DNA of 64,000 nucleotides from Chloroflexota bacterium. GTDB taxonomy: Bacteria; Chloroflexota; Anaerolineae; Aggregatilineales; Phototrophicaceae. Positions 9,531 through 62,070 of this stretch are shown here, in pieces. The DNA is taken from assembly GCA_028875245.1 (NCBI GenBank), contig JAPPEU010000033.1:24992-88991 (forward strand), given 5' to 3'. Under the pieces are notes generated by a model. The model searched no databases. It was not told where the DNA came from and worked only from the letters and a program-made list of their open reading frames with translations. The stretch's first letter is position 1. Each line of letters begins with the position of its first letter. The position numbers and the translations under genes were made by a program.

Positions 9531-9600
9531 CAATTCTTGCACCCCCATCCCCGTCAGATTTGGATTTGTAGGGGGGCGCTGAAACGCCCGTTGCGACAGC

Positions 9601-9878: not shown

Positions 9879-9969
9879 TGGTGAAATCGGCCTATATGTA
9901 AACAAATAGTCGCCCTTTGACGCGCGCGGGATGCTAGCCTGCGCGGAGACAAATCGAAGGAGCGACCCA

Positions 9970-15393: not shown

Positions 15394-15446
15394 GGGCGTA
15401 TCTCTTTAGCCAAGCCAGTGTCGCCAGTATAGCATAGCGACAGCCC

Positions 15447-15477
15447 CTCTCTGTGCCCTCTGTGCCTCTGTGGTGAA
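15447..15477. repeat. octamer-repeat module CTCTGTGCCCTCTGTGCCTCTGTGGTGAA
   Basis: Identical core to 19229..19259 and 39942..39972. Confidence 0.75.
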
Positions 15478-19134: not shown

Positions 19135-19228
19135 GTATTATTCCTAATGCATTGTACGGTTGGGCGGATCGGCGGGCGACCCCAATGGGTCACTCCTGCA
19201 AGGATTCCAAGAATTGATGGCGCCCCGT

Positions 19229-19259
19229 TTTCTCTGTGCCCTCTGTGCCTCTGTGGTGA
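19229..19259. repeat. octamer-repeat module
   Basis: TTCTCTGTGCCCTCTGTGCCTCTGTGGTGA abuts the stop codon of P2. Confidence 0.75.
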
Positions 19260-19261
19260 GT

Positions 19262-20572: not shown

Positions 20573-20628
20573 GGGTTGCTCCTAAATGGTTGCATGCTTG
20601 TTCATATCGTCCTCTCAAGGAGAAACTT

Positions 20629-20742
20629 GTAGGGGCGTCTTGCTGAGACGCCCGCGTTCTGTACATGGGATTTCAGGCGAGCCGCCGTCTCGCCCCTACA
20701 GTTTCGAATGATTGCAGGCGACCCGGTTGGGCAGTCCCTACA
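20629..20742. repeat. cluster of GTAG-type GC-rich hairpins (REP/BIME-like)
   Basis: GTAGGGGCGTCTTGCTGAGACGCCC..., GGCGAGCCGCCGTCTCGCCCCTAC and GCAGGCGACCCGGTTGGGCAGTCCCTAC in alternating orientation. Confidence 0.75.
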
Positions 20743-20758
20743 ATCTCGCGCGCGGCGA

Positions 20759-22066
20759 CTAGCCCGCGGCGTGCGTCTTCTCCGCTTGCGCGACAAAGCG
20801 ATCGATGACGTCATCTATGGCAAATGGCGATTGGTGATAGAGGAAGGTATGCACCTTGTTGTTGAAGTTCTTGTACCAGTGTTTGGGGATGGCGCTTTTG
20901 CCATAGACGGCGCCCCAGATGCTGCCGGCGGTGGCGGCGGTGCAGTCGTTGTCCTTGCCCATGGCGACCGTCTCGCCGATGACCTTGCTGTAGTCCTCGC
21001 CACCAACCGTCAAGCCCCAAACGGTTAGCACGGTGTTGTTGATGGCATGCGCGCCGCCCATGACCGTATAGCGCTCCTCGATGGCGGCGGCGGCATCGCG
21101 ATAGTTCGCGATCTGCGGCGCGACTTCCAGCGCCCAGCGTGTCTCGCGCGCCAGGTAACAGTCGGCCGGTATTTCTTCGAGGCCGATCTTGAGCGCGTCG
21201 ACTGTGTTGTCGACGGCGAAGGCGGCTGAAATGGCGGCGGAGAAGAACATGGCGGCGAAGATGCCATTGCGCCGATGGCTCACGTAGGCGTCGCGATGGG
21301 CGAACTCGGCCGCTTTCTCCGGCCAGCCGGGCGCGGCATAACCCCAGGGGTCGGAGCGGATGTCGGCGCCGATCCAGTTCAGAAAGGGATTATCGACCTC
21401 GGCCGCCTGCAGCGGCGCGACGCCCTTGCGCAGGTTGTCGAGCGCGATGCCTTCGGCGGTGAAGGCGAAGGGCAAATACTTGATCCAGGCCTCGCCCAGC
21501 TCGTCGGTGGTGAAATCGAGCCCGTACTCCTCGAGGATCATCAGGCCGAGCAGCGTGTAGTTGAGGTCGTCATCGGTGGGTACGCCGTCCATCTTCGCCG
21601 GCGTGAAATCTTCGCGCAGGCTGGTCTGATACTTCTGCATGTGCGGCTGTTCGGCGACGCTCCAATAATCCACCAGCGGGTATTCGTCGCCGAGATAAGC
21701 GGCCCAATCTTCCATGCGTTCGACCGTCCAGCCTTCGACGATGGAACCGAGTGTGCAACCGGCGCAGCGCCCGAGCCAGGAGCCTTCGAGGCGCTCGCGA
21801 AAATCGTCGGCGAGCGAGTTCCACATTCGGCGTCCGCCGGCGGGGCGCAGGCGGCGGATCGTCTCCAGGTCGTCGGGTTCCGCTTTTGCCAGGGCGGCGT
21901 CGTTGGGCAGCGCGTCGAGCTCCGCGACTTTCTGCGCGAGCAGGGCTTCGATCTCGGCCACCTTTTCGGCCACGCCCGGCGCGCCAAACTCGACTTTCTG
22001 CTGGGCGTAGGCGTTGATCCTGCGTTCCCAGGCCGCTACCTTGTCCGGATATTCAAATAGACGCAT
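20759..22066 (-). CDS. ADP-ribosylglycohydrolase-like protein, tandem paralog P3
   Basis: GAGGAG RBS before the ATG at 22066 (MRLFEYPD). 'AMGKDNDCTAATAGSIWGAVYG'. Confidence 0.8.
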   Translation of the reverse strand: MRLFEYPDKVAAWERRINAYAQQKVEFGAPGVAEKVAEIEALLAQKVAELDALPNDAALAKAEPDDLETIRRLRPAGGRRMWNSLADDFRERLEGSWLGRCAGCTLGSIVEGWTVERMEDWAAYLGDEYPLVDYWSVAEQPHMQKYQTSLREDFTPAKMDGVPTDDDLNYTLLGLMILEEYGLDFTTDELGEAWIKYLPFAFTAEGIALDNLRKGVAPLQAAEVDNPFLNWIGADIRSDPWGYAAPGWPEKAAEFAHRDAYVSHRRNGIFAAMFFSAAISAAFAVDNTVDALKIGLEEIPADCYLARETRWALEVAPQIANYRDAAAAIEERYTVMGGAHAINNTVLTVWGLTVGGEDYSKVIGETVAMGKDNDCTAATAGSIWGAVYGKSAIPKHWYKNFNNKVHTFLYHQSPFAIDDVIDRFVAQAEKTHAAG

Positions 22067-22255
22067 GATGTTCTCCTCTGTGAAATTTCTTTGCCGACTG
22101 AATAAAGCTTTCTTCGTGGGATTGCTCGACACTATTTCGCCGTCTCTTGCGCCATTAGGCTACCCACTGCCTTTAGACACTCGCTAATGCAAGAATGATT
22201 GCGGTAACATAAAATTGCGTTAGCGTATCTGAACCAGATCGAGATCGGACAATCA

Positions 22256-22468
22256 ATGGAAAGCATTGTGGCAGAGTCGTTGTCGCCCGCGGATAATACT
22301 AGCACGACGCAAGAGTCTATCCGAGAGCGTATGAAAGGCATTGAAAAAGATATTGAGTGGATCAAACGGCTGCTCTTTGTCATGATCGCCGGTATGCTCG
22401 CATTGTTTGTAGTTCTCTATGAGCTGCGAGGGACAGTTGAAGCGATTCAGAATAGCTTGTCAAACTGA
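22256..22468 (+). CDS. small coiled-coil protein with C-terminal transmembrane helix (XhlA-like topology)
   Basis: 70-aa ORF in a low-GC pocket, on the opposite strand to its neighbours. 'IEWIKRLLFVMIAGMLALFVVLY' is a hydrophobic helix. Weak RBS. Confidence 0.45.
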   Translation: MESIVAESLSPADNTSTTQESIRERMKGIEKDIEWIKRLLFVMIAGMLALFVVLYELRGTVEAIQNSLSN

Positions 22469-22584
22469 ACTGTTGTCCGCGCCAAAGCCAGCATTTGATT
22501 TGATGGTTGTGATGCAATGCCATTTCCTAAACTTATCAAAATGTTGACGGGCGACCTCACAGATTCGAAACGAATGCGGTTCGC

Positions 22585-23892
22585 CTAACTCTCCGCCATG
22601 ACCCTTTCGGCCTGGGCGGCGAAGCGATCTACGGTGTCATCAATGGCGAAGGTCCGCTTGCCGTTCAGGTAAGAGTGCATCGTGTTGTTGAAGTTGCGCG
22701 TCCAATGTTCCGGTATCGCGCTCGCCCCATAGACGGCGCCGAAGATGCTGCCCGCGGTGGCGGCCGTGCAGTCGTTATCCTGGCCCATGGCGACGGTCTC
22801 GCCGATGACCTTGGTGTAGTCATCACCGCCGACGGCCAAGCCCCAAACCGTCAGAGCGTTGTTCTGCAGGGAATGCGACTTCCACAAGCCGGGATAGCGT
22901 TCTTCACAGAGCGCGGCGGCGTCTTTGTAACCGGAAATCGACGGCGCCTTATCCAGCGCCCAGCGAATTTCACGCGCCGTAATGGACTCGGCGGGAATCT
23001 CTTCCAGGCCGATTTGCAGCGCTTCCATCGGATCGTCGACGGCGAAGGCGGCCGCGATCGCCGCTGAGAAGTACATGGCGGAATAGATGCCGTTGCGGCG
23101 GTGGCTGATTGTCGCGTCGCGCCAGGCGAATTCGGCCGCTTTTTCCGGCCAGCCGGGCGCGGCGTAGCCCCAGGGGTCGGAGCGGATATCGGCGCCGATG
23201 AAGTTGAGGCAGGGGTTGTTGAGCGCGCCCGCTTGCAACGCCGGCACGCCATTGCGCAGGTTCTCCAGCGCGACGCCCTCGGCGGTGAAGGCGAAGGGCA
23301 GGTATTGCACCCAGGCGGCGCCCACATCTTCGACGGTGAAATCGGGACCGTATTCTTCCAGAATCAGCAGGCCAAGCGCGGTATAGTTGAGGTCGTCATC
23401 GCTGGGCACGCCGTCCATCTTGGCGGGCGTGTAATCGTGGCGGGTGCTGACCTTGAGCCGGGGCTCGTGGGGCTGTTCCGCCTGGCTCCAATAATCCACG
23501 AGCGGGAAGGGGTCGCCGATATAAGCGGCCCAGCGCTCCATGCGGTCGACCTTCCAGCCTTCGACGATAGAGCCGAGCGTGCAGCCGGCGCAGCGCGCCA
23601 GCCAGGCCCCTTCCAGCCGATCGCGGAAGTCGTCGGGGAGCGATGTCAGCATGCGGCGGCGGCCGGCGGGGCGCAAGGCCAGGATGGACGGCAGATCGTC
23701 TGGCTCCGCCTGCTCCAGCGCGGGGTCATTGGGCAGCGCGTCGAGCTCCGCGACTTTCTGCTTGAGCAGCGCTTCAATCTCGGCGACCTTTTCCGCGACG
23801 CCCTGGGCGCCGAATTCGACCTTTTGCTTGGCATAGCGGTTGATGGTCAGCTCCCAGCCTTCCAAATCGTCAACATAATCAAAAAGCTTCAT
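22585..23892 (-). CDS. ADP-ribosylglycohydrolase-like protein, tandem paralog P4
   Basis: ATG at 23892 (MKLFDYVDD). 'AMGQDNDCTAATAGSIFGAVYG'. Confidence 0.8.
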   Translation of the reverse strand: MKLFDYVDDLEGWELTINRYAKQKVEFGAQGVAEKVAEIEALLKQKVAELDALPNDPALEQAEPDDLPSILALRPAGRRRMLTSLPDDFRDRLEGAWLARCAGCTLGSIVEGWKVDRMERWAAYIGDPFPLVDYWSQAEQPHEPRLKVSTRHDYTPAKMDGVPSDDDLNYTALGLLILEEYGPDFTVEDVGAAWVQYLPFAFTAEGVALENLRNGVPALQAGALNNPCLNFIGADIRSDPWGYAAPGWPEKAAEFAWRDATISHRRNGIYSAMYFSAAIAAAFAVDDPMEALQIGLEEIPAESITAREIRWALDKAPSISGYKDAAALCEERYPGLWKSHSLQNNALTVWGLAVGGDDYTKVIGETVAMGQDNDCTAATAGSIFGAVYGASAIPEHWTRNFNNTMHSYLNGKRTFAIDDTVDRFAAQAERVMAES

Positions 23893-24081
23893 AGCATCAT
23901 CCTGTTTCAAAGCATCAATTGGCAGTTCCGCAAGCATAACAATTCAGACAACCCGCGTCAAAAGAATCTCGATTGCTTGAATTACCGAGGCAATACCTGT
24001 CTCGCCACCGTCCAACAGCTTAAAGAAATTTGCGGGCGAGCCGGCGGCAATCGGGCGGATCCGCGCGCTAATGAACGTTTC

Positions 24082-25210: not shown

Positions 25211-25320
25211 AACCGCTGTGCTCTCGCAGGAATTATCCTCTACAATTGCAGTCTAACATCCGCCAAGAAAATGCAGGGGCGAGCCATTGAGTCGCCCGTT
25301 AACCAAGAAGGCTACAGTCT

Positions 25321-34051: not shown

Positions 34052-34135
34052 CGCCCGCCAGAGCGCAAATGCAGGGGCGACTCTGTGAATCGCCCGCCAG
34101 AGCGCAAATGTAGGGGCGAGCCATTGGGTCGCCCG
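34052..34135. repeat. tandem pair of REP-like hairpins
   Basis: CGCCCGCCAGAGCGCAAATG(C/T)AGGGGCGA-loop-TCGCCC occurs twice. Confidence 0.7.
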
Positions 34136-34160
34136 ACGAACAAGAATCAGGAGAACCCAC

Positions 34161-39894: not shown

Positions 39895-39941
39895 CAGCTG
39901 GCCACATCAGCGTATGCCCACCGAGGTCCATAGATGCAGTT

Positions 39942-39972
39942 TTCTCTGTGCCCTCTGTGCCTCTGTGGTGAA
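39942..39972. repeat. octamer-repeat module
   Basis: TTCTCTGTGCCCTCTGTGCCTCTGTGGTGAA lies between the ARH stop and the PfkB start. Confidence 0.75.
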
Positions 39973-39994: not shown

Positions 39995-40990
39995 CTATCG
40001 CGTTTCAATCAGACGCTGCAAGCCCGCCGCAATCTCGCGCACATTGTAGGATTGGAAGACTTCATCGTTTTCCAGGACGGCGACATCGTCGGCGCGCAGC
40101 GCGTCAAAGCCGGCGAAGGCCCCGGCCATGGCGCAGGCGATCGCGCCGATGGTATCGGCATCGCCGGAGAGATTCGCCGCCAGGATCGCCGTCTCTTTGG
40201 GGTCGCCTTGCCCTAGGGCAAGCAGCCCGAAAGCCGCGCCGACGGTCTCCGGCACATTCAGAGTGGCGCCGACTTCGTCGTAAATCCGCCGCAATTTCAA
40301 GCGTTGATCGGCGTCGTCAGAGGCGATTTCAAGCGCTTGCTCAATTTTGAATGGCACCGAACAGCCGAACCAGGGCCGTCCGTGGGCGCGCCCCAGCTCA
40401 GCGCCGCGCAATCCGGCGGCAATCACATCGTCCAGCGAGGCGCCTTCGCCCAGCGCCGCGGCAACGGCAGCCGCCACCGCGGCCGCGCCCGAGACCGCCG
40501 GTCGGGTGAAATGCGTGGGCATGCAAACAGTGACAGCGTCGGCGACGGCGCCCTCGATATCGCCCGGATGCAGGGCGCCGATGGGCGCGATGCGCATGGG
40601 CGCGCCGTTGGTATCACCCCATAGGCCGGTCCGTCGCGGGTCCTCGCCGGCTTTGAGCACATTGATGCCGCGCCGCGTGCTGGGCCCGACGAAGGGACAG
40701 TTATCGCCATCGACGCGGTCGTACCAGGCGACCAGTCCCGTAACCGCCGCGTCGAGGGTGACGCCGCCGGCGTCGATCACCGCTTGGGCGATGGAGAAGG
40801 CTTGTTCGGAATCGTCGGTGATGCGCCCGGCGGGCAGGCCAGCGTGCACCAGGTGATCGGCGGGGGCGGGCTGCCAGCTATCGAGCCAGCCGAAGCAGCG
40901 CTCGGTGTCTCCGGGGTGGACTTGGGCGGGCATGGCGAAGGCGTCGCCGAGGGCCTGGCCGTAGAGGCAGCCGAGGATTTTGTTGAGCAT
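39995..40990 (-). CDS. canonical ADP-ribosylglycohydrolase family protein
   Basis: 'GCLYGQALGDAFAMPAQ', 'ITDDSEQ' and 'SGDADTIGAIACAMAGAFAG' are the classical ARH/DraG motifs. Confidence 0.85.
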   Translation of the reverse strand: MLNKILGCLYGQALGDAFAMPAQVHPGDTERCFGWLDSWQPAPADHLVHAGLPAGRITDDSEQAFSIAQAVIDAGGVTLDAAVTGLVAWYDRVDGDNCPFVGPSTRRGINVLKAGEDPRRTGLWGDTNGAPMRIAPIGALHPGDIEGAVADAVTVCMPTHFTRPAVSGAAAVAAAVAAALGEGASLDDVIAAGLRGAELGRAHGRPWFGCSVPFKIEQALEIASDDADQRLKLRRIYDEVGATLNVPETVGAAFGLLALGQGDPKETAILAANLSGDADTIGAIACAMAGAFAGFDALRADDVAVLENDEVFQSYNVREIAAGLQRLIETR

Positions 40991-41171
40991 GATGTATCGC
41001 TAGCCTCCTGCAAGATATGTTGAAAGCGTAGAGCCACTGGACCGGCCATACACATGCTCTGTGTCCACTGTGCCTGAGTGGATAATTCCCCCGGGTCAAC
41101 ACAATACCTCCGCTCAGTCAGGCGTTGGCGCAGTTATTGTGGTTCATGGCAAACCATACGGGGCAACTGGC

Positions 41172-43007: not shown

Positions 43008-43217
43008 GTAGGGGCGAGCAATTGGGGCGCCCGAATGAAACCTCTGCGTCATCAGTAGCGCAAAGAAAGTAAGGCAATAATACAAGGAGCGTGTAGGGGC
43101 GTCTCGCTGAGACGCCCGCTTACCCAGCCACCCAATTGTCGGGCGTTTCAGCGAAACGCCCCTACGGATTTCATTTGCATAAGTGACTTTCACTGGCCTC
43201 TGTGCCTCTGTGGTGAA
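43008..43217. repeat. REP-like hairpins plus octamer tail
   Basis: GTAGGGGCGAGCAATTGGGGCGCCC, GTAGGGGCGTCTCGCTGAGACGCCC, GGGCGTTTCAGCGAAACGCCCCTAC, ...CTCTGTGCCTCTGTGGTGAA. Confidence 0.75.
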
Positions 43218-46543: not shown

Positions 46544-47650
46544 TTATTTTCCTGCCGCAATTTGATTCCAGGATTCTTTCAACTCGAATGTTATCGCTGG
46601 ATCATTCTCCAGATGCGATACATATGCGTCAACAAAGGAACGAGTCTCACCGATTAACCGCAAATAGTAAAGTAGGGTGCGGTCAACACCATTCACAATT
46701 AGTTGACAACCGTGAGTACGGGCAACATGATTTATGTCAGGTCTGAATTCGTCGTAGCTCGTATGCGAAAACGTAGTAAGTATGTAGAATACTTTGACGG
46801 GCGTAGTCCGTAATTTTTCGAAGGAGGTTTGAATCAATTCCGAAGTTATCGGTACATTATGTTTTAGTTCGTATCCCTCAAATAATGCGCCATTGCTATC
46901 GACAATATTTATGTCGCCGATGAGTTGCGAGCGTGAGTCCGCAGTCGTATGAGCCTCAAGTGGTAACAATTGGCAGTTTCGGTATCGGTCGGTTTCTCTA
47001 GCAAGGACAGTCAAAATAGCGTGAATGGCTAGCACTGGCAACCTAGCCGCACCCGGTCTCTTCACATCATGATGATGTTGCAGTCTATTTACGAGCTCGG
47101 CAATAGAAAGATTCACCGGGCGCGCAAGGTTTAGACTTGTGTTCTTGTCTCTCGCCTCTATCAAACCTGTGAACAACCTGAGCATTAAGAATTTCGCTTT
47201 ATCCGCGCCGTTTTTCTGTGCGGCATCAACCAAATGCAGAAATGACCTTTTCAACGCTTTCGGTGTAATGTTGCCAGGATAATTGAAGTCAAACGGATGC
47301 GACTGCTCAAAAGACCTGGTCAACCAACCTGACTCACTCATACTTGGGAACTGCTTGGATCGCAGGAAAGGTGTAACAATTTGCGTATCAAGCCTTCTAC
47401 CACTGAAACCACCGTCAAATTCTGTCCGGTGAAATCGTATATCCTGCGCGGGACTTGAGATTTTCTTTAGAAGCAATGTAACGAGTACCGCAACAGCCGC
47501 TTTTCTGTTCTCTTGATTTTTTATGACGGTCGAAAGTTGGCTCTCTTCTTCTTCGGAAATCTCAGATATGGACTCATCATTATTGTATCGATACATAGCC
47601 TCGCGATAAATGTCTTCCAATGCCTCGGCTCGCCAGTCCGGTTCTGTCAC
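46544..47650 (-). CDS. putative type II restriction endonuclease (PD-(D/E)xK-like)
   Basis: 4-nt overlap with the methyltransferase stop. Candidate catalytic 'IGDINIVD...FEGYELKH' (D...ExK). Low GC. No family recognised. Confidence 0.5.
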   Translation of the reverse strand: MTEPDWRAEALEDIYREAMYRYNNDESISEISEEEESQLSTVIKNQENRKAAVAVLVTLLLKKISSPAQDIRFHRTEFDGGFSGRRLDTQIVTPFLRSKQFPSMSESGWLTRSFEQSHPFDFNYPGNITPKALKRSFLHLVDAAQKNGADKAKFLMLRLFTGLIEARDKNTSLNLARPVNLSIAELVNRLQHHHDVKRPGAARLPVLAIHAILTVLARETDRYRNCQLLPLEAHTTADSRSQLIGDINIVDSNGALFEGYELKHNVPITSELIQTSFEKLRTTPVKVFYILTTFSHTSYDEFRPDINHVARTHGCQLIVNGVDRTLLYYLRLIGETRSFVDAYVSHLENDPAITFELKESWNQIAAGK

Positions 47651-48720
47651 AAGAGTCTCTCCATTACAGGCACTGCCGATTCTCCCAAGGCATTCCGCAT
47701 ACGCTCTTGAGCGTCAATACAGTATTCGCGGCTGATGTCAATTCCGATACAGCTTCGGCCTTCTTGCAGAGCCGCCACCATCGTCGAGCCACTGCCAAGA
47801 TATGGGTCCAGCACCAACCCGCCTTCAGGGCAAAGCAGCTGTATCAACTCCCTAACAACTTTCACCGGGAAGATCGCGGGATGGCCGTTTCCAGGCAAAC
47901 TCTCAACAGGATTCTCTATGACATCTCTTTTCAACGGCTCGCCTGAGATGCGAATTATGGTAAAGCCGTATCGCTCAATTCGCATCTTCCGGCCGCCTTC
48001 TTGCCCGCCATAAGCAGGAGCGTGGATGCCACGGATCTTCATCCTGAAACTATGAATCTTACCCTTACGAACATCGTCAATTACTTCGTCTAAAGCCTGA
48101 TGCGCCCCACCCTTCTCACACTGGCTCAAGGTTGAAGATTCTATTAGTTCCCGATACTTAGCGCCGAGTTTTTTTGTTGGCTTTGAACGCGGTCTACGAC
48201 CGGCCCGTTGAAACGCCTTCCGGTCGTAGTAGTAGTTACTACCGAGCGCAAAATGAAAAAACGGTTCGGTACTGGCAATTAGCCGGCGAGAAAACTGATG
48301 TGGCGTCGGATTGGATTTGATCCATGTAATGTCATTAACCAGTCGCAAATTGAAGTCGGACAGCACCTTAAGAGCAAACTGATAGGGTACGAGCATCATG
48401 CTCCCGTCAATGATCTTGTCACCCATATTGTAGACGATGTTTCCCGTCGGCTTCATGACACGCACGACTTTCGCGAAAGTAGTCATAATGCTTTCGAGAT
48501 ACTGTTCGATCGTTTCCTCGTTTCCAAGACCCTCTTCGCCATATTCTCGTTGCTGAAAATAAGGGGGAGAAGTAACCACCAGATCAACCGAGCGCGGCAC
48601 CACCTTTGAAAGTTCCGTATCGCTGTTTCCACAGATGACCTGGTATTCCAAGTCTCTCACTCGGTGGGAGTAGATTACGCCATTATTCATACGAAATACT
48701 TCTCGCCTGCTGACCAACAT
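47647..48720 (-). CDS. beta-class DNA methyltransferase, probably N4-cytosine (TSPPY)
   Basis: 'DLVVTSPPYF' (motif IV) precedes 'VLDPYLGSGSTMVAA' (motif I). The start may be 48690. Confidence 0.85.
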   Translation of the reverse strand: MLVSRREVFRMNNGVIYSHRVRDLEYQVICGNSDTELSKVVPRSVDLVVTSPPYFQQREYGEEGLGNEETIEQYLESIMTTFAKVVRVMKPTGNIVYNMGDKIIDGSMMLVPYQFALKVLSDFNLRLVNDITWIKSNPTPHQFSRRLIASTEPFFHFALGSNYYYDRKAFQRAGRRPRSKPTKKLGAKYRELIESSTLSQCEKGGAHQALDEVIDDVRKGKIHSFRMKIRGIHAPAYGGQEGGRKMRIERYGFTIIRISGEPLKRDVIENPVESLPGNGHPAIFPVKVVRELIQLLCPEGGLVLDPYLGSGSTMVAALQEGRSCIGIDISREYCIDAQERMRNALGESAVPVMERLL

Positions 48721-48794
48721 GAGGGCAGATCATCTCGACACTACTCTGTTGTGAACTGCATTAGCCTTTATCGTGAAGCTGTGCCGTCCAGGAC

Positions 48795-49046
48795 TCACTC
48801 AACCGATACCACATGTGGCGTGTACACGACAATGGTATCGGCATCCGGGTCTTTGCTTATCGGCTGCATTAGCACCGTGCCGTATTCGTGTTCAACATAA
48901 ACTGCGTCAGCCGCATGCCGGTAATCGTCGAAGATTCCGAGGACATTCTTTCCCTTGATCGCCACGAATTTACCGTCATGTTCCCGCGCCAACACCTCCC
49001 GAATCGAGAGGTAGAATTCATATTCTTTCTCCAACGGTTTCGGCAT
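48795..49046 (-). CDS. small protein, DUF5678-like ('GKFVAIKGKNVLG')
   Basis: 83-aa ORF heading the low-GC R-M cassette. The motif pattern resembles DUF5678 proteins. Not an HTH controller. Confidence 0.45.
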   Translation of the reverse strand: MPKPLEKEYEFYLSIREVLAREHDGKFVAIKGKNVLGIFDDYRHAADAVYVEHEYGTVLMQPISKDPDADTIVVYTPHVVSVE

Positions 49047-49094
49047 CAGAGCGCCCCTGCCCTACTCGTTCACCTTGCATTGTAGCATAACGTA

Positions 49095-49207
49095 GCGCGC
49101 CTTTATGAGCGCGCGCAAATCTGGCGTTGCGTGTACGGGCGAGCCGGCGGCCCGCCCGCAAGGTCTGGCGTTTGGCAATTAGGGCGGCACGATGGCTCGT
49201 CCCTACA
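49095..49207. repeat. degenerate REP-like hairpin cluster
   Basis: GGGCGAGCCGGCGGCCCGCCC ... GGGCGGCACGATGGCTCGTCCCTAC. Confidence 0.6.
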
Positions 49208-49230
49208 AACTGACCGAGTGAAGAGATGGC

Positions 49231-50379
49231 CTACATATCGTCCATCATCAGGTCGTCGATGGTCATGCCGGCGGTGGGCATATCGGCGCAAGCGGCGCCG
49301 ACCGAAGCCATCATGTCCTCGCTGGTGAAGACGGTCTGAACTTCGATATCGCCGGCGACCACTGCCTCCTCAGCCGCTTCCACCATGGCCTTGATGTCAT
49401 CGGAGGTGGCCATGTCATAGAACTCGTTCTTGGCCAGGCCGACGCCGCCCTCGGGGATGCCCAGGCTCTCGGCGGAGCCGTAAGGCAGCATGCCCTCGAG
49501 GTGCAGGGTGATGGCGCGGAAGATCGAGTTATCGACATTCTTCAGCATGGATGTCAAGATGCGCTCGGCTTGATCGGGGTCGGTCTCGGCGACGATGATC
49601 GCCTGATCCGAATCGACGCCGATGGCATAGCGCCCCTGTTCCTGCGCCGCTTCAAAGACGCCAACGCCGGTGCCGCCGGCGACCTGGAAAACGATATCGG
49701 CGCCTTGTTCGTACATCGCCAATGTGATCTCCTTGCCGCGCGCCGGGTCATTCCAGCTGCCCGCGTATTGGACGATGCTCTGCGACTCCGGATTGACCAG
49801 GCAAGCGCCTTGCTCGTAGCCGACGATGAAGTCGTCGATGACCGGAATCTGCTGCCCGCCAACTGCGCCGATGATGGGCGCGTCGTTGGTGCCTTCAAGC
49901 ATGCTGGTGGTGATGGCGGCGGCATAAACGCCGGCCAGGAAGGAGCCCTGATTCTGCGCATAGGTCATCGAATAGACATTGGCGCAGGCGTCGACGCAGA
50001 CATCGGCATTGTCATAGGGCATCGGCGCGTCGTAGAACATGAAGTACTTGTCGGGATAGTTGTGCGCGTTGGCCGCCATGAAATCGATCATCTGGAAGGT
50101 GCCGGCAAGCAGGATGTCGTAAGAATCCGTATCCGCCATCACATCCAGCAAGCCCGACTCCCAATTGGCCGGGTCGATGCCCAGCTCGACTGTATCGATC
50201 TCGATGTCGTATTCATCGGCGATGGCGTCCATGCCGCGCTGGGCGCTATCGAAGAAGGATTTGTCGCCCAAGGTGCCGTTGATGACCGATACGACCCTGA
50301 GCGGCTCATCCTGGGCGACGGCTGTGAAAGCCATCAAGAACACAAGCATCAGCGCTAGCGCAATCCGTAGCTTATACAT
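49231..50379 (-). CDS. BMP-family (PnrA/Med-like) ABC substrate-binding lipoprotein, nucleoside type
   Basis: GGAGGAAACTA RBS before the ATG at 50379. Signal peptide MYKLRIALALMLVFLMAFTAVAQ. 'GGTGVGVFEAAQEQGRYAIGVDSDQ'. Confidence 0.85.
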   Translation of the reverse strand: MYKLRIALALMLVFLMAFTAVAQDEPLRVVSVINGTLGDKSFFDSAQRGMDAIADEYDIEIDTVELGIDPANWESGLLDVMADTDSYDILLAGTFQMIDFMAANAHNYPDKYFMFYDAPMPYDNADVCVDACANVYSMTYAQNQGSFLAGVYAAAITTSMLEGTNDAPIIGAVGGQQIPVIDDFIVGYEQGACLVNPESQSIVQYAGSWNDPARGKEITLAMYEQGADIVFQVAGGTGVGVFEAAQEQGRYAIGVDSDQAIIVAETDPDQAERILTSMLKNVDNSIFRAITLHLEGMLPYGSAESLGIPEGGVGLAKNEFYDMATSDDIKAMVEAAEEAVVAGDIEVQTVFTSEDMMASVGAACADMPTAGMTIDDLMMDDM

Positions 50380-50383
50380 TAGT

Positions 50384-50461
50384 TTCCTCCGTTTTATGAT
50401 TGTCGAATCAGATGGAATTCTGATGGCGCTATTATAACCGCGTTTGGCGCGATTCGGCAAA
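50384..50461 (-). promoter_or_regulatory. promoter + 5'UTR module, copy A (TTGCCG-18-TATAAT, dyad ATCAGA-N6-TCTGAT, GGAGG)
   Basis: On the minus strand: -35 at 50455..50460, -10 at 50431..50436, dyad at 50407..50424, RBS at ~50386. 78 nt identical to 51367..51444. Confidence 0.55.
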
Positions 50462-50566
50462 GGGCGCTACGCTGCAAACGCTTGTCGGATGGCAACGCCA
50501 CAAAGACAACAGTGGCCAGACGCTGCGGTACATGCATTATGTTGAGGATTAGACTCGATATTGGCG

Positions 50567-50773
50567 TTAGACCGGTATCTTCTTTCGCCGTGAGCGATAA
50601 TAGACGAACATCGAGAGCGCTCCCAAATAGGGTATTAGCAGCGCGATAACACCCCAGAACATTAGGTCTCTCGCCGGCTTCCTATTAACGTAGAGGTAAA
50701 TCCATGCGAAAAGTAGCAGAATTGGATGCAAAAGCAGAAACACAATGAACAAGGGTTCAGTGTCGTAAAACAT
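50567..50773 (-). CDS. PLD-nuclease-N-terminal-domain-like small membrane protein
   Basis: Two hydrophobic helices and 'FWGVIALLIPYLGALSMFVYYRSRRK', typical of the PLDc_N family. Confidence 0.6.
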   Translation of the reverse strand: MFYDTEPLFIVFLLLHPILLLFAWIYLYVNRKPARDLMFWGVIALLIPYLGALSMFVYYRSRRKKIPV

Positions 50774-50784
50774 GAGGCCTCTCC

Positions 50785-51361
50785 CTAAACCTGGTGATGG
50801 CAGACATGCTGAATAGGCCTGACGTAAACGATCGGCTGCACCTGAACCACGAGATTGAAATTTAACTGCATCCGAAGCGTCTTGCCAGAATTCTGAAAAG
50901 CATTGTTTAACTGTATGTCACGCACATCGTGACCGTAAGGCGCCCCGATAAGTTCGTACCATTGCGCTATGAAACGGTCGAACGTGAACGAGCCGCCTGA
51001 CACGATTATCTCTACGCGCGCCTTTGAAGTAACGGTGGTAAGCGCGCCCCACTTCTGGCACTCGTAAGTCGAAATGACTTTCGAGCCGCTTGCCAACCAA
51101 CCGTAGTCGGAGTCACGTTGAAACACGAAATCCGCCGCCATCGCGTCGCCAGACAATCTCGCCACAACAGCTTGCGCCTCCTCAAGGTTTTCAATGCTGA
51201 AGACATCACCTGATTTCAACAGCGAGCCAGTGGGTACAAAACCATTGCCGCGCAAATATGCGTCTATTTCGGCAAAGTCCTTAGGTTGCCTCTTGCGCCG
51301 CAACGGTGAAAGCCAGCAAGAACGCAAGCATTGCCGCAAGCAACATTCGTAGCTTTTTCAT
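50785..51361 (-). pseudogene. secreted/lipoprotein-like gene of unknown function with a frameshift after the signal peptide
   Basis: ATG at 51361 gives MKKLRMLLAAMLAFLLAFTVAAQEAT, then TAA. The long ORF (50785..51339) continues in another frame from '...KDFAEIDAYLRG'. Confidence 0.45.
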
Positions 51362-51366
51362 TTGCG

Positions 51367-51444
51367 TTCCTCCGTTTTATGATTGTCGAATCAGATGGAA
51401 TTCTGATGGCGCTATTATAACCGCGTTTGGCGCGATTCGGCAAA
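51367..51444 (-). promoter_or_regulatory. promoter + 5'UTR module, copy B
   Basis: 78 nt identical to 50384..50461. Confidence 0.5.
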
Positions 51445-51459
51445 AGAATCGAAAGCCAG

Positions 51460-51626
51460 GTAGGGGCGACATACCATGTCGCCCGCCAAATCACAAACCC
51501 CAGGGCCAACCTGTCACGGCGTCCGAAACCGCATCCTATCGCAACGACGGGCGATTCACAGAAACGCCCCTACGGATTCCCATTTGGGTGCGCCGAGTTG
51601 TGGCTCGCGAGCTGCTGTGGTTACAA
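51460..51626. repeat. REP-like hairpins plus shortened composite module
   Basis: GTAGGGGCGACATACCATGTCGCCC ... GGGCGATTCACAGAAACGCCCCTACGGATTCCCATTTGGGTGCGCCGAGTTGTGGCTCGCGAGCTGCTGTGG. Confidence 0.7.
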
Positions 51627-51669
51627 TAGCCGAAACGCGAATCGCTTCAATATTCAAAGGGCCTCAACA

Positions 51670-52602
51670 ATGAAACTGATCATCGATACCGACGCCGGCG
51701 TCGACGACGCTCAGGCCATCATGCTCGCCCTGGCGCATCCGGGTGTGGAGACGCTGGCCATCACCACCTTGACCGGCAATGTGCATATTCGCCAGGTCAA
51801 CCCGAATGTGCTGACCATCCTCGAGATTATGGGGCGTGATGCGCCGGTTTACGCCGGCATTGACCGGCCCTTGATCTCGGAATGGGAGGACGCGGCCGAA
51901 TTTCACGGGGGCGATGGGCTGGGCAATTTGCGCGAGCGCCCGGCTTTGACGCGCCGCATCGAAGACGAGCATGCGGTTCTGGCGCTTTTGCGGCTGGCGC
52001 GCGAGCATGAGGGCGAGTTGACGCTGATCGCGCTGGGCCCACTGACGAATATCGCCGCCGCCGTGCGCATTGACCCGGCTTTCCCGGGGCGGATCAAGCA
52101 ATTTGTATTCATGGGCGGCACGATCGCGGCGCAGGGGAACACGCCCATCGTCAGCGCCGAATACAATATCTGGACCGACCCGGAAGCGGCCGCCATCACG
52201 CTGGCCGCCTTCGAAGAGGCGACCATGCTCAGCTGGGAGACGACGATGGCCCACGGTTTCCCGTGGGATCAATTCAACGCGCTTTGCGCCATTGATACGG
52301 CCAGGGGGCGCTTCTTCCGCGCGATTTCGCAAGAGACGGCCGAGCGGCTGCGCGGGGTTTATCGGCGGCCGGCCTATCTGCTGCCGGATCCGCTGGCGAT
52401 GGCGATTACGCTGCGGCCGCAGCTGATTCGTCAGAGCGGCAAGTTCTACACCACGGTCGAGCTTAATGGGCGGCATACGCGCGGGCAGACCGTCATCGAT
52501 TACACCGGCATCAGCGGCAATGCGCCCAATGTCAATGTGATTCAAGCACTGGATACCGATGGCGTTTATGAGCTATTCGTCAATGCGCTGTCGCAAGAAT
52601 GA
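51670..52602 (+). CDS. inosine/uridine-preferring nucleoside hydrolase family protein (second copy)
   Basis: 'LIIDTDAGVDDAQAI' DxDxxxDD signature. ATG at 51670. Confidence 0.85.
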   Translation: MKLIIDTDAGVDDAQAIMLALAHPGVETLAITTLTGNVHIRQVNPNVLTILEIMGRDAPVYAGIDRPLISEWEDAAEFHGGDGLGNLRERPALTRRIEDEHAVLALLRLAREHEGELTLIALGPLTNIAAAVRIDPAFPGRIKQFVFMGGTIAAQGNTPIVSAEYNIWTDPEAAAITLAAFEEATMLSWETTMAHGFPWDQFNALCAIDTARGRFFRAISQETAERLRGVYRRPAYLLPDPLAMAITLRPQLIRQSGKFYTTVELNGRHTRGQTVIDYTGISGNAPNVNVIQALDTDGVYELFVNALSQE

Positions 52603-52620
52603 GTAACCCCGCGGCCTGCC

Positions 52621-52694
52621 TTAGGGGCGACCTACCAGGTCGCCCGCTAGCCGGCGCGCGCATGGAAACGGGCGACATGATATGGCGCCCCTAC
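52621..52694. repeat. pair of REP-like hairpins
   Basis: TTAGGGGCGACCTACCAGGTCGCCC ... GGGCGACATGATATGGCGCCCCTAC. Confidence 0.7.
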
Positions 52695-52707
52695 AAGGCT
52701 TAGTACT

Positions 52708-53799
52708 GTGATGACTGCGCAAATCGTGAACTTGCTCAAGAGCATCAGCGCCGATCCAGCCACAACCGCTGACGCCATTTTCGCCATGTTGACGCGCTTG
52801 CTGGAGGCGCCGGCGCCGGCAAACAGCTGCACGCTGCCCGGCACGGTCGGCGAAGTGATTCAGCAGATGGCGGAGGAGCTCGGCTTGGATTGCGCGCCCG
52901 TCGCCGCGACGGGAAACCTGGGCATCGAAATCGGCGAGCCGGCCGCCCCGCTTGACCTGCTGATCAGCGCCCACATGGACCGCCCCTGCTTCCGCGTGCG
53001 GGATCTGGCGGCTGGGACCTTGTATCCGCTCTGCGCCATTCGCGTCCCGGGCGATGGCTATACCTGTGGCGCGATTGGGCTGCGTTATGTGGATGGCCGC
53101 GTGCGCGTCAGCTCGAGCGGCGACATGCGCTTTGAGAGCGCCGGCGGCGACACTCGCATTACTTATCAGCCGGCGGTTGGCGAGCTGGGCGCGGGCGATA
53201 CGCTGATGATGCGGGCGACGCCGCGGCTGCGCGAGGGGCGGATTGTGGGCACGGGGCTGGATAATGCAATCGGCGTGCTGCTGGCGCTGCTGGCGGCTTA
53301 TACGCTGGGCGAACATGCGCCTGATGCTATCGCCGGCCGCCGCGTCCTCTTCGCCTTCACCGACCAGGAAGAGGGCCCGCCCGTTGGCCTCTTCGGGCAA
53401 GGCGCGTCCCGCCTGGCGCAGAGCCTTGCGCCGCCGCGGCTCGGCTTCATCAATATCGATGGGCACAATGTGGATGAAGCGGCCGGGCATGTCCCCGGGG
53501 GCGGCGCGTCGCATGGCTTTGTCTCCGGCGACGGGCGCGGCTCGGTCGTGCCGCTGGATGCGCAAGCGCTGGCGGAGTCGCTGGCTGAACAGGTCAATCG
53601 GGCGCGGCCGGGCACGGTGCGGCTGAACCACAGTTATATCTCGCGCAGCGATGACATGCTGCTGAGCATGTGGGCGCGTCCGCTCGGTTTGAGCGGCGTC
53701 ATCGTGGCGAATGCGCATACGGTGGAGGAGACGGCGGCGCTGAGCGATGTGGTCTCGGCGGCGCATTGGGCGCCGGCTTTCATTAACCAACTTCTGTAG
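52708..53799 (+). CDS. M42-like (FrvX/CelM-type) metallopeptidase-fold protein
   Basis: 'LLISAHMDRPCF', 'GTGLDNAIG', 'FTDQEEGP' and 'ANAHT' follow the order of M42 metal ligands. Assignment by motif order only. Confidence 0.5.
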   Translation: MMTAQIVNLLKSISADPATTADAIFAMLTRLLEAPAPANSCTLPGTVGEVIQQMAEELGLDCAPVAATGNLGIEIGEPAAPLDLLISAHMDRPCFRVRDLAAGTLYPLCAIRVPGDGYTCGAIGLRYVDGRVRVSSSGDMRFESAGGDTRITYQPAVGELGAGDTLMMRATPRLREGRIVGTGLDNAIGVLLALLAAYTLGEHAPDAIAGRRVLFAFTDQEEGPPVGLFGQGASRLAQSLAPPRLGFINIDGHNVDEAAGHVPGGGASHGFVSGDGRGSVVPLDAQALAESLAEQVNRARPGTVRLNHSYISRSDDMLLSMWARPLGLSGVIVANAHTVEETAALSDVVSAAHWAPAFINQLL

Positions 53800-54066
53800 G
53801 GACGGCAGAGCCGCTGTGTCTACGCGCGGTAGCATGTCGCCCGACGCACATTTATGAATTCCGCAACGGCGACCCAATGGCTCGCCCCTACAGAGACTAT
53901 ACTGCGGGCAAACTGGCGTTTCAGCGCCGCGACCCCTGTCTCGCCCTAAACCTCGCGCTATTGCATGGACGGGCGTTTCAGCGAAACGCCCCTACAGATT
54001 CCTATTTTGCGGGTTCGTAATTTTGTGTGAGCCGAGTTGTCACTCGCGAGCGGCTGTGGTGAATCC
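53794..54066. repeat. large composite repeat block ending in the ~75-bp module (53991..54066)
   Basis: Contains several hairpins shared with 59648..59740 and 37244..37340, then CCTACAGATTCCTATTTTGCGGGTTCGTAATTTTGTGTGAGCCGAGTTGTCACTCGCGAGCGGCTGTGGTGAA. Confidence 0.75.
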
Positions 54067-59647: not shown

Positions 59648-59821
59648 GTAGGGGCGAGAGACGGTCAGTGTCTACGCGACCCTTGTCTCGCCCTACGAGC
59701 TCGCGATATCGCATGGACGGGCGTTTCAGCGAAACGCCCCTACAGCTTCCTTTTGTCGGGGATCCGTAATTTTGTGTGAGCCACGTCGTGACCTGTGAGG
59801 GGCTGTGCGCAAATCATCCGT
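59648..59821. repeat. composite repeat block plus ~75-bp module, copy 1 of the asnB 3' duplication
   Basis: GTAGGGGCGAGAGACGGTCAGTGTCTACGCGACCCTTGTCTCGCCCTAC..GGGCGTTTCAGCGAAACGCCCCTACAGCTTCC...TGAGCCACGTCGTGACCTGTGAGGGGCTGTGCGCAAATCATCCGT. Confidence 0.75.
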
Positions 59822-60072: not shown

Positions 60073-60189
60073 TTGAGTCCTCTACAACTTCAGTTTGATT
60101 ATATCCATTCATGGCGAAGCAATCAAGAATTCCTTCGCTCCACCCTATACTATGAGCCACGTCGTGACCTGCGAGGGCTTGTGGTGAAA

Positions 60190-62070
60190 TCATCCGTCCA
60201 CAAACTGACGATGCCATTCCTCCAGCGTGAGCAGGGCCCAGAGCTGCCGATTGTGATCACGCGCGCCCGCTTCGTGCTCGGCGATTAAACGCTCGACCGC
60301 CGAGATCTCCAGCAAGCCGCGTTCGCGCGCCCGCCGGCTGAGCAAGAGCTCGCGCATTGGCGCCATATCGCGCCGGAGCCAAGCGCCCAGCGGTACGCCA
60401 AAGCCGTGCTTTTTCCGGTCGATGATCTCGGGGGGGAGCAAGCCCTGCGCCGCCTCTTTGAGAATATGCTTGCTGCGCGAGCCTTTGAGCTTGAGGTTGA
60501 ATGGGATGATGGCGGCGGATTCAGCGAGCTCATGATCAAGGAAGGGGGCGCGCGTTTCCAGCGAGGCGGCCATGCTGCAGCGGTCGGCTTTGATCAGCAG
60601 GTCGTCGGGCAGATAAGACCGCATATTCGCTTGCACAAGTTCGGCGACAGGCTGAGTTTGGCCGGGATTCATATAGGCATTCATGGTCGGCTGAGTTGGA
60701 TCGGCCTTGGGGCAGATATCCGCCAGCAGCGTCGCATCGAAAATGCGGACCAGGTCGAAATAAGCATCCGCCAACCCTTGACTCGCCGCCCGCGCGAAAC
60801 GACGGGCGCGCTTGATCGGGTCATAGTAACCGGTTCCCTCTGGCAAGCGCCGGAGCAATTCGGCCGCGCCGCGCAGAAACGGCCCCGGCATGAATTGGAG
60901 CTTTCGCATCAGATCGACGGCGTAGAAGCGCTCATAGCCGGCGAAGAGCTCATCGCCGCCATCGCCGGTCAGCGCGACCGTCACCTGTTCGCGCGTGAGC
61001 TTGCTGACCAGGTAGGTGGGGATGGCGCTGCTATCGGCGAAGGGCTGATCGTGATGCCGGACCAGGTCGGAGAGCAGGCTCAATGCCTCGGGCTCGACGC
61101 GGAACGTGGAGTGCTCGGTCTCGAGATGGCGGGCGACTTTCTCGGCGTAGAGGCTTTCGTCGAAGGTCTCATCGCCCGCGAAGCCGATGCTGAAGGTTTT
61201 GATGGCGCTGTTGCTGCCCCGGCGCATCAGGGCGACGATCAGGCTGCTGTCGAGGCCGCCGCTCAAAAAGGCGCCCAGCGGCACATCGCTGATCAGGCGC
61301 AGTTTCACCGCTTCCGCCAGCTGTTCGCGCAGATCGCCGACATAAGTCGCCGCCTTGGCCGCCGGTTCGGGGGGCGCGAGCGGGGGCAAGTCCCAATAGC
61401 GCTGCTCCCGCGTCGCGCCGGATGGCTCGACATGCAGGGCACTCGCCGGTTGAAGCATGTGTATGCCGGCGAATGCGGTCTGTGGCGCTGGCACATAGCC
61501 GAAACTCAGGTACGCAGCCAGCGCGCGCCGGTCATCTCCCTCGAAGCGGGAGACGCGGGGTATAGCGGGATGCGCCAATAGTGCCTTGATCTCGCTGGCG
61601 AATGCGAAGACCTTGTTGTTCGCATAATAATAGAGCGGCTTCTGGCCGAAGCGGTCGCGCGCCAGGAGCAGGCGCCGCCGCCGCCCGTCCCAAAGCGCCA
61701 GCGCGAACATGCCGCGCAGGTGCTTCAGCGCGTCGGGGCCATGATCCTCGTAGAGATGAGCGATCGTTTCGCCATCGCCATCGGTTTTGAAGCGGTGCCC
61801 GCGCCCCATGAGCTGGCGGCGCAGCGCGCGATAATTGTAGATTTCGCCGTTGAAGATGAGGACAACGGAGCCGTCTTCGCTGCTGAGCGGCTGATCGCTG
61901 CCGGCGATGTCGATGATTTTCAGGCGGCGCATCGCCAGACCGATGTTTCCGTCGCTGAAATAACCAGCGCCGTCGGGACCGCGATGAGCGAGCCGCTCGT
62001 TCATGCCCGTCAGCAGCGCGCGACTGACCGGCTTTCCGTCGAAATGGATGACGCCGCAGATTCCGCACAT
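60190..62070 (-). CDS. asnB: asparagine synthase (glutamine-hydrolysing)
   Basis: N-terminal 'MCGICGV' Ntn-amidotransferase nucleophile. 'SGGLDSS' PP-loop. 626 aa. Confidence 0.9.
   Translation of the reverse strand: MCGICGVIHFDGKPVSRALLTGMNERLAHRGPDGAGYFSDGNIGLAMRRLKIIDIAGSDQPLSSEDGSVVLIFNGEIYNYRALRRQLMGRGHRFKTDGDGETIAHLYEDHGPDALKHLRGMFALALWDGRRRRLLLARDRFGQKPLYYYANNKVFAFASEIKALLAHPAIPRVSRFEGDDRRALAAYLSFGYVPAPQTAFAGIHMLQPASALHVEPSGATREQRYWDLPPLAPPEPAAKAATYVGDLREQLAEAVKLRLISDVPLGAFLSGGLDSSLIVALMRRGSNSAIKTFSIGFAGDETFDESLYAEKVARHLETEHSTFRVEPEALSLLSDLVRHHDQPFADSSAIPTYLVSKLTREQVTVALTGDGGDELFAGYERFYAVDLMRKLQFMPGPFLRGAAELLRRLPEGTGYYDPIKRARRFARAASQGLADAYFDLVRIFDATLLADICPKADPTQPTMNAYMNPGQTQPVAELVQANMRSYLPDDLLIKADRCSMAASLETRAPFLDHELAESAAIIPFNLKLKGSRSKHILKEAAQGLLPPEIIDRKKHGFGVPLGAWLRRDMAPMRELLLSRRARERGLLEISAVERLIAEHEAGARDHNRQLWALLTLEEWHRQFVDG

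Follow-up and report, generated by a model that had tools for sequence, protein, structure and literature searches.

An identical promoter and 5′ leader module flanking a low-GC gene pair upstream of Bmp in a Chloroflexota genome: a probable recent recombination tract between two old copies

The locus and its features

The DNA analysed here is a 64,000-nucleotide (nt) stretch of a Chloroflexota (Phototrophicaceae) genome (GenBank assembly GCA_028875245.1, contig JAPPEU010000033.1, positions 24,992 to 88,991), referred to below as the window and numbered from its first letter. Its subject is a 78-nt module, consisting of a putative promoter and 5′ untranslated region (5′ UTR), which is present twice on the minus strand. 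Copy A lies directly 5′ of the gene for a Bmp-family transport protein, and copy B lies at the head of an insert of 905 bp carrying two open reading frames (ORFs), designated X and Y. The labels L001–L088 refer to the fetched loci and contigs with which the window was compared. The features are as follows, in the order in which the minus strand is read, with the divergent neighbour last.

51367..51444, minus strand: module copy B, identical part (exact repeat and promoter scan); −35 at 51443-51438, −10 at 51419-51414, dyad ATCAGA-N6-TCTGAT at 51407-51390, GGAGG at 51373-51369
51281..51361, minus strand: copy-B signal-peptide ORF, 26 codons, MKKLRMLLAAMLAFLLAFTVAAQEAT followed by a stop; 72.5% nt identity to the Bmp signal-peptide codons
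50785..51285, minus strand: X, a 166-codon orphan ORF, apparently the mature part of a formerly secreted protein (from the ORF and the comparison with L024)
50567..50773, minus strand: Y, a small membrane protein of 68 amino acids (aa) with its own ribosome-binding site (RBS), GGGAGAGG; weak PLDc_N-like match
50462..50566, minus strand: spacer J, from the Y stop codon to module copy A
50384..50461, minus strand: module copy A, identical part, the putative native Bmp promoter/5′ UTR (single-copy orthologues 5′ of Bmp in about 60 relatives); −35 at 50460-50455, −10 at 50436-50431, dyad at 50424-50407, GGAGG at 50390-50386
49231..50379, minus strand: Bmp/PnrA-family ATP-binding cassette (ABC) substrate-binding protein, 382 aa (ATG at 50379, stop at 49231), PF02608
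51670..52602, plus strand: inosine-uridine-preferring nucleoside hydrolase, divergent; a conserved left neighbour that marks the orthologous locus

Direct comparison of 50384-50461 with 51367-51444 reveals an exact direct repeat (78/78 nt) with a spacing of 983 nt. Both copies possess a −35 element TTGCCG, an 18-nt spacer and a −10 element TATAAT, each promoter scoring 10/12 positions in a consensus scan, followed by the dyad and by GGAGG. The distance from −10 to dyad is 6 nt in both copies, so the dyad is expected to begin at about the predicted transcript start (+1). Downstream of the 78-mer the homology continues for about 70 nt, through the start-codon spacer and the signal-peptide codons, at 72.5-74% identity with one indel; upstream of −35 the two copies are without any similarity. 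On its upstream side the identical tract begins with the duplicated segment itself; on the other it ends shortly after GGAGG, where identity falls abruptly. The probability of a 78-nt identical run at the flanking identity of 74% is 6e-11. A sequence-only reading of this DNA had described the identical copies, their promoter, dyad and GGAGG elements, and homologous coding starts of about 70% identity, all of which were recovered here. It had also raised the possibility of a common dispersed repeat; the window contains two matches to the 78-mer in total, even with three mismatches (expected 0, none in 100 shuffles), and the module is tied to gene starts in the relatives described below. The intervening gene pair is low in GC, as had been remarked: 50.7% for the insert versus 59.7% for the window. 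GC at third codon positions (GC3) is 60 for X and 58 for Y, versus 78-81 for Bmp, the hydrolase and the ATPase.

Bmp matches PF02608 with an E value of 1.5e-57 (195 bits versus a cut-off of 24) and heads a nucleoside-type ABC operon, with the ATPase and two BPD_transp_2 permeases encoded further downstream. Its signal peptide, MYKLRIALALMLVFLMAFTAVAQDEP (codons 1-23, 50311-50379), is without a lipobox Cys, and no Cys was found in residues 1-30 of either Bmp or the copy-B peptide. It looks like an ordinary AxA-cleaved Sec signal. Copy A had been assigned to a Bmp nucleoside-binding lipoprotein gene; the family assignment holds, while the lipoprotein label is unsupported since the lipobox Cys is missing.

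The gene following copy B had been called a frameshifted secreted-protein gene, and this is what is found. The 26-codon signal-peptide ORF ends in TAA (51283-51281), out of frame with X, which has been cut off from its signal peptide by a net loss of 2 nt relative to L024. X in the window is probably a recent pseudogene. The context of the frameshift (51281-51300, minus strand) reads GAGG-CA-ACC-UAA-G, in which 2 nt separate a GAGG resembling a Shine-Dalgarno (SD) sequence from the last sense codon, with the stop directly after it. It is superficially like the prfB +1 site, although re-pairing of tRNA-Thr there would be poor. A +1 shift at this position would yield AAQEAT-KDFAEID, the intact fusion that is in frame in L024, and the site could permit programmed frameshifting which still gives a secreted X. 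Y has no NCBIfam match and, in Pfam, only the sub-threshold similarity to PLDc_N; of what promoter copy B expresses, Y is likely to be the part that still functions. Since no minus-strand terminator was detected in spacer J, between Y and copy A, transcription may read through into Bmp.

Soundness of the assembly

The window comes from a 126-kb short-read metagenome scaffold (ROBB21-1_SAMN13943215 scaffold_345). In such data, strain variants or a circle might be stitched together via the 78-mer, which is approximately k+1 for k=77, or the two copies might be homogenised by bubble popping. A separate short Logan contig covering the insert (L088) is graph-circular with a 30-nt end overlap, as a stitched circle would be. 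Against this, the region is present at 99.5% identity in four more assemblies (L084-L087), a sister-sample ENA scaffold and three JGI metagenomes, which differ from the window in sample and in pipeline. Three of the four span both module copies in the same tandem order (L087 starts within X and contains copy A only), so that the arrangement was assembled from two samples on the ENA side and from three metagenomes on the JGI side, both copies being spanned in two of the latter. The X frameshift is identical in every strain assembly that covers the signal-peptide–X junction. L086 carries a single-nucleotide polymorphism (SNP) private to copy B, which shows that the two copies were told apart in assembly and that re-homogenisation is not immediate. 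The Logan contigs (k=31) break or overlap exactly 30 nt (k−1) into the repeat, the behaviour expected where the reads contain a genuine repeat; the Y-to-module junction must be present in reads as well, and the same architecture occurs in L024, a chromosome-level assembly from another species. Given the further assemblies, the private SNP and the k−1 breaks, an assembly artefact is unlikely, and we assign it very little weight.

The sequence immediately 5′ of copy B differs among strains: L084 (2124-2317) has a 194-nt insertion rich in hairpins resembling repetitive extragenic palindromes (REP), and L085 and L086 (1-90) have unrelated sequence resembling the end of a coding region. Contig L002 (Logan, 1182 nt, k=31) carries Bmp and stops exactly at the Bmp stop codon. 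This points to a second graph branch, owing to strain heterogeneity or to a repeat just downstream of Bmp, and is consistent with a SNP cluster at 49112-49368.

The module in related genomes

The relatives are Chloroflexota metagenome-assembled genomes labelled Anaerolineae, Aggregatilineales or Phototrophicaceae, many of them chromosome-level; the isolate names of several suggest a sponge or coral origin. Directly 5′ of the Bmp orthologue, about 60 related genomes carry one homologous module each. This bears out the link to a gene start that had been claimed for the module, and by its conserved position the 78-mer is identified as the native promoter/5′ UTR of the Bmp gene, with predicted promoter activity, rather than as a dispersed repeat. 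The exact 42-nt core of the module gave 0 matches in metagenome_contigs, a collection evidently without this organism.

The sequence-only reading had offered either selection or conversion as the cause of the perfect identity, the former acting on a regulatory element (operator or 5′ stem-loop) while the coding parts drifted. In favour of selection, the −35, −10 and GGAGG elements and both arms of the dyad are conserved across the relatives. However, the orthologous modules are only 75-95% identical to the 78-mer: the closest, L079, matches at 74/78 positions (95%), the next, L009, at 87%, and most lie at 75-87%. Among 60 orthologues 9/78 alignment columns are invariant, and the −35/−10 spacer, the hairpin loop and the stretch from hairpin to RBS vary freely. 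Copy B of L024 has even lost the RBS and one dyad position. Purifying selection cannot yield 78/78 on a template of this variability, and as an explanation of the identity we regard it as close to untenable. The other half of the earlier proposal, recombination or conversion, is borne out by the concerted pattern and by the mosaic in L079, both described below.

Age of the X-Y architecture

Phototrophicaceae locus L024 (OZ253492.1), from a chromosome-level, long-read assembly, has the order promoter, signal peptide–X in frame, Y, promoter, signal peptide, Bmp. Its copies A and B are 74.7% identical upstream and 79.7% identical in the signal peptide. Two further features of this locus are an IS3-family transposase gene (HTH_21 + rve; 3647-4788) directly 5′ of module copy B, and the absence of a nucleoside hydrolase gene from the 6 kb fetched upstream of Bmp.

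The X proteins of the window and L024 are 72% identical, with a strongly conserved core. The ratio of nonsynonymous to synonymous divergence (dN/dS) is 0.25 over residues 1-130 and 0.09 over the C-terminal 36 residues; X in L024 is truncated by a 1-nt deletion, and the low C-terminal value holds even past it. These ratios indicate that X was a selected coding gene through most of the divergence between the window and L024. The synonymous divergence (dS) between the two is 0.81 for X and 0.58 for Bmp. From the positions of the two lesions, X appears to have been broken recently and at a different place in each lineage. X is an orphan: a search of 5.8 billion proteins returned only two clusters, the metagenome_contigs and viral_contigs scans gave no homologue, and there is no Pfam or NCBIfam match. 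The AlphaFold2 model (pLDDT 43.5) is unusable.

A third carrier, L032, retains beside its Y gene a remnant consisting of the end of the signal peptide (“AQE”) and the N-terminus of X, with a score of 17 versus a null maximum of 16. In addition, this locus contains a complete Bmp paralogue in tandem, which has a module copy of its own. A candidate for a decayed third module copy 5′ of the X remnant was not significant. Y-family genes lie 5′ of Bmp in more than 10 further lineages. The layout of L024 with its diverged copies, the L032 remnant and the wide occurrence of Y argue against a simple, fresh insertion of foreign DNA as the source of the 905 bp, and in that form the recent insertion suggested earlier does not survive. 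A single origin of the signal-peptide–X junction is surmised from the alignments.

Recombination between the copies

The two copies within L024 are 75% (upstream) and 80% (signal peptide) identical, versus 68% and 67% between copy B of the window and copy B of L024, and 64% between the upstream parts of the respective copies A. The L024 copies furthermore have a common lineage-specific −35/−10 spacer. In these alignments, within-genome copies are more alike than orthologous copies of different genomes, which is the pattern of concerted evolution.

L079 represents the locus without X-Y (hydrolase, module, Bmp) in a close relative of the window (hydrolase 94% and Bmp 92% identical at the aa level). 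Its module corresponds to copy B from the RBS spacer to about +44 (one difference) and to copy A from about +50 onward (one difference). This mosaic has the form of the chimera expected from a crossover between the signal-peptide regions; equally, it matches the recipient state for re-integration of a circle. A comparison with relatives lacking the insert had been proposed in the sequence-only reading, and this empty site with its B/A mosaic signal peptide indicates that the repeats mediate homology-driven gain or loss.

We conclude that the 78 nt probably (at roughly 60%) represent a tract recently exchanged between two old copies by gene conversion or crossover. The abrupt drop in identity past GGAGG is how a conversion or heteroduplex tract would end. 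The chief competitor is a recent homology-mediated insertion, in which the X-Y cassette and a module copy came from a close donor as an excised circle or a permuted linear fragment. Entry would have been by a single crossover or by “ends-in” gap repair at the Bmp module, the promoter being templated by the recipient and the cassette keeping its own signal-peptide codons. The foreign-like composition of X-Y and its patchy distribution speak for this route, and an L079-type mosaic is exactly the recipient that would regenerate the layout of the window after integration of a circle. Among the strains the insert has 0-1 SNP versus 5-7 in Bmp. This contrast is weak, as most of the Bmp SNPs lie in one shared 3′ tract, and for that reason SNP density was rejected as a dating tool. 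On the other side, an insertion needs a donor promoter identical to that of the recipient, or gap repair, which is itself a conversion. The dS of X is of the same order as that of Bmp, as for long co-residence; all five strain-level assemblies have the insert, with no empty-site strain among them; and the scans of other organisms, phages and metagenomes gave no X homologue that could represent an outside donor pool. Because a conversion-like event is needed in either a vertical or a lateral history, unless the donor was conspecific, conversion is ranked first and re-insertion, which we consider a good deal less probable, second.

Direct repeats around a low-GC segment, in a genome rich in REP-like elements and low-GC islands, might also suggest the target-site duplication or the terminal repeats of a mobile element (transposon, integron cassette, or miniature inverted-repeat transposable element). 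The insert, however, consists of X and Y only, with no transposase, integrase or terminal inverted repeats, and it is not present elsewhere in the window. A repeat of 78-150 nt far exceeds the usual target duplications; it is moreover a resident promoter, with homology running on into the signal peptide. This origin is the least credible of those considered.

Several points weigh against conversion between long-resident copies. The single origin of the signal-peptide–X junction rests on short alignments. In a neighbour-joining tree of ATPase and Bmp nucleotides, the window, L024 and L032 fall into three clades, each with X-free sisters; the sister of the window is L009, which together with L079 represents its nearest, X-free relatives. 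With carriers so placed, lateral spread fits as well as repeated loss. X-Y has a GC3 of 58-60 in all three carriers, versus about 80 for the neighbouring genes, and the Y genes of other clades have host-like values of 71-89. Low GC3 and patchy carriers would fit lateral movement of X-Y via the shared module, and equally a long-resident, weakly constrained segment lost by loop-out. If an X-Y circle had recently re-entered from a conspecific donor, the outcome would look very much like that of conversion. Short-read assemblers can also hide one or two differences between near-identical repeats by bubble popping, so the “perfect” identity might be “nearly perfect.”

With conversion as the preferred reading, the following history may be proposed. 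Before the lineages of the window, L024 and L032 split, a 5′ module of about 150 nt (promoter, 5′ UTR, RBS and signal-peptide codons) would have been joined to the unrelated orphan gene X, followed by Y, giving the order module-X-Y-module-Bmp. This layout would co-express X and export it under the signals of Bmp. Non-reciprocal exchange would then keep the copies alike, the latest tract beginning where homology begins upstream and ending a little beyond the RBS. Reciprocal exchange would loop X-Y out or back in, leaving a single mosaic module as in L079. With the recent frameshift in X, copy B would now mainly serve Y: transcription from it would cover the short signal-peptide ORF, the broken X and Y, perhaps continuing into Bmp, and transcription from copy A would cover the Bmp operon. 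As both copies carry the same promoter and leader, Y, and formerly also secreted X, would be co-regulated with nucleoside uptake. As it is flanked by repeats, the X-Y segment is expected to be unstable and to be lost or regained by one crossover.

The leader dyad: hairpin or operator

Across 60 non-identical orthologous leaders, 93% of cells in the six-pair stem of the dyad are paired, versus 23-33% with a slid partner. Three pairs show double changes, including A-U to C-G in six sequences, and loop length varies between 5 and 7 nt. Shifted or different stems are found in L025 (GTTCTC/GAGAAC), L026 and L040 (GTCAC/GTGAC) and L029 (TCAGCA/TGCTGA). A local hairpin of −3.5 to −11 kcal/mol is present in 59/60 sequences. 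The conserved pairing, double changes, variable loops and alternative stems speak for a structural element located at the 5′ terminus of the mRNA. The minimum free energy structure also shows another, anti-SD pairing (UUCC.UCUG with CGGAGGAA), which was dropped because the loop sequence is not conserved.

Other results weigh against the hairpin. RNAalifold on the 60 leaders returned no consensus structure; folding of the whole leader is no better than that of shuffles (z = 0.08); and G-U cells (19) are not in clear excess over A-C cells (14), so that these counts do not favour recognition of the dyad as RNA over recognition as DNA. The covariation and structure analysis of the UTR proposed earlier is thus favourable for the stem itself and negative for the leader as a whole. 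An Rfam search of 48500-53500 on both strands gave 0 matches at E<=1, for a leader of only about 50 nt. The hairpin of the window is weak, at approximately −5 kcal/mol, and symmetric stem changes are also expected from a co-evolving dimeric repressor. The palindrome overlaps the predicted +1 (TATAAT plus 6-7 nt), with 5-7 nt between its arms. With up to two mismatches the dyad occurs in the window in the two module copies only; in the 82 fetched loci its matches fall in the Bmp leader and, for L001, also in copy B, with a single additional match in L014. No regulator gene was found in the Bmp operon. On balance we lean slightly toward a 5′-terminal mRNA stem-loop acting in stability or translation control. 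An operator is the less probable alternative on this sequence evidence, and a small remainder is left for some other role.

Variation around Bmp and other repeats

The gap between hydrolase and Bmp ranges from 0.19 to 4.8 kb across relatives. In L003, L004, L010, L011, L013, L014 and L031 it contains a membrane protein of about 590-630 aa (motif LYAAPNFEASDTVQHVGMIKFIAE, host-like GC3) without a Pfam match, as well as small secreted-protein ORFs; the window has neither. The stretch from Bmp to the ATPase varies as well. Here (46544-49046) the window has a small DUF5678-like ORF of 83 aa and a low-GC restriction-modification pair, made up of a methyltransferase and a putative endonuclease with GC3 45-54; the ABC ATPase and the two permeases come next. 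The same pair, other content or a direct junction occurs in L007, L009, L014, L016, L028, L035, L037-L039, L041 and L053. No direct repeats were found around the restriction-modification cassette of the window.

A 5′ end of the ABC ATPase gene is duplicated in L013 (8433-8493 and 8634-8694; 61 nt, 93% identical, 201 nt apart), and L012 (2834-2926) has an ATPase N-terminal fragment ahead of a methyltransferase cassette. The duplicated part comprises the start codon and about 20-31 codons and resembles the duplicated gene 5′ end flanking the insert at Bmp. At its 3′ end, asnB of the window (60190-62070, minus strand) has a 45-nt direct repeat, the copies of which (59777-59821 and 60153-60197) are 87% identical with a spacing of 376 nt; the sequence-only reading probably had this repeat in mind when it mentioned asnB.

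REP-like intergenic hairpins (TAGGGGCG-N-CGCCC, GGGCGTTTCAGCGAAACGCCCCTAC) are abundant. Five tandem units of about 60 nt occupy 9585-9882, and other sites are 20621-20655, 25269-25309, 34067-34146, 43085-43129, 51452-51486, 52622-52692, 53868-54016 and 59700-59764. A 33-nt element, CTCTGTGCCCTCTGTGCCTCTGTGGTGA, occurs in five copies (15444-15476, 19227-19259, 39939-39971, 41052-41084 and 43184-43216), two of them 100% identical and 20.7 kb apart. Each lies shortly 5′ of a minus-strand gene start, and the element may be another shared upstream module. Finally, 17836-23937 contains four tandem paralogues with 1.4-1.8-kb spacing and 68-81% nt identity, and a fifth copy (39995-40990) follows ABC permeases; the three that were Pfam-scanned are ADP-ribosylglycohydrolases (PF03747).

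Significance

The locus offers a clean natural example of a gene acquiring expression and export signals via partial duplication of a neighbour’s 5′ module. Short non-coding repeats appear here to be homogenised by recombination, and the same repeats to mediate the gain and loss of the intervening genes. For annotators it carries a caution: perfect non-coding identity beside diverged coding sequence is a signal of recombination, not of constraint. In addition, a conserved hairpin or operator is defined in the leader of a nucleoside-uptake operon of an uncultured, sponge-associated Chloroflexota clade. More speculatively, and with considerable doubt, the module may be a portable homology “handle” which lets small cassettes such as X-Y loop out in circular form and re-enter related symbionts through homologous recombination of the ordinary kind. 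If so, a cassette entering where a conserved and highly expressed operon has its 5′ end would gain a promoter, a leader hairpin and an export signal at once. This would constitute a recombinase-free mode of cassette exchange, with possible parallels in the ATPase 5′ ends of L013 and L012 and in the asnB 3′-end repeats.

Comparison with known systems

Gene conversion and concerted evolution are familiar from duplicated bacterial sequences such as tufA/tufB in Salmonella and the rRNA operons, where RecA-type non-reciprocal exchange is the source of identical tracts. The locus described here resembles these cases in having an identical tract bounded by diverged homology, and copies that are closer within a genome than to their orthologues. 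It differs in that the unit is the non-coding promoter/5′ UTR of two unrelated genes and that the tract is just 78 nt. As to the dyad, 5′-terminal stem-loops protect mRNA from 5′-end-dependent decay in E. coli ompA and in the B. subtilis aprE and ermC leaders. The Bmp leader is comparable in possessing a short hairpin which starts at the predicted +1 or about 1 nt from it, and which retains its structure despite changes in the loop and in some stem bases; by contrast with those leaders, its hairpin is weak, its start is predicted, and the symmetric changes fit an operator equally well.

The single chimeric repeat of L079, with B sequence 5′ and A sequence 3′, is what direct-repeat loop-out or Campbell-type integration produces, and as in the latter the states represented by the window and by L079 would interconvert by one crossover. 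Unlike site-specific integration, no recombinase or att site is involved, and the homology consists of about 150 nt of ordinary promoter and signal-peptide DNA.

In the Staphylococcus aureus lpl cluster the intergenic region, together with the 5′ end of the next ORF, forms one evolutionary unit (PMC2568036). There, as here, the intergenic region and the signal-peptide 5′ end behave as one recombination unit, and homologous recombination reshuffles the gene bodies. The lpl genes, however, are true paralogues with a central conserved recombination site, whereas X and Bmp are unrelated and have only the 5′ module in common. A further parallel is the “upstream homology box” (UHB) family of Borrelia burgdorferi (Marconi et al. 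1996), cited in PMC10016077. As at the present locus, one promoter and leader block is common to genes whose mature parts are unrelated. In contrast to the two tandem chromosomal copies at a transporter operon of an uncultured symbiont, the UHB occurs in multiple copies on cp32 prophage plasmids and is associated with antigenic variation. The box reportedly comprises the upstream promoter and the leader-peptide codons of genes with dissimilar mature parts, and is said to have been proposed to arise and spread by recombination, giving co-regulation. Set beside these systems, the module at Bmp is a new and tidy example of known, ordinary processes rather than a new kind of system, and it is congruent with current understanding as it stands.

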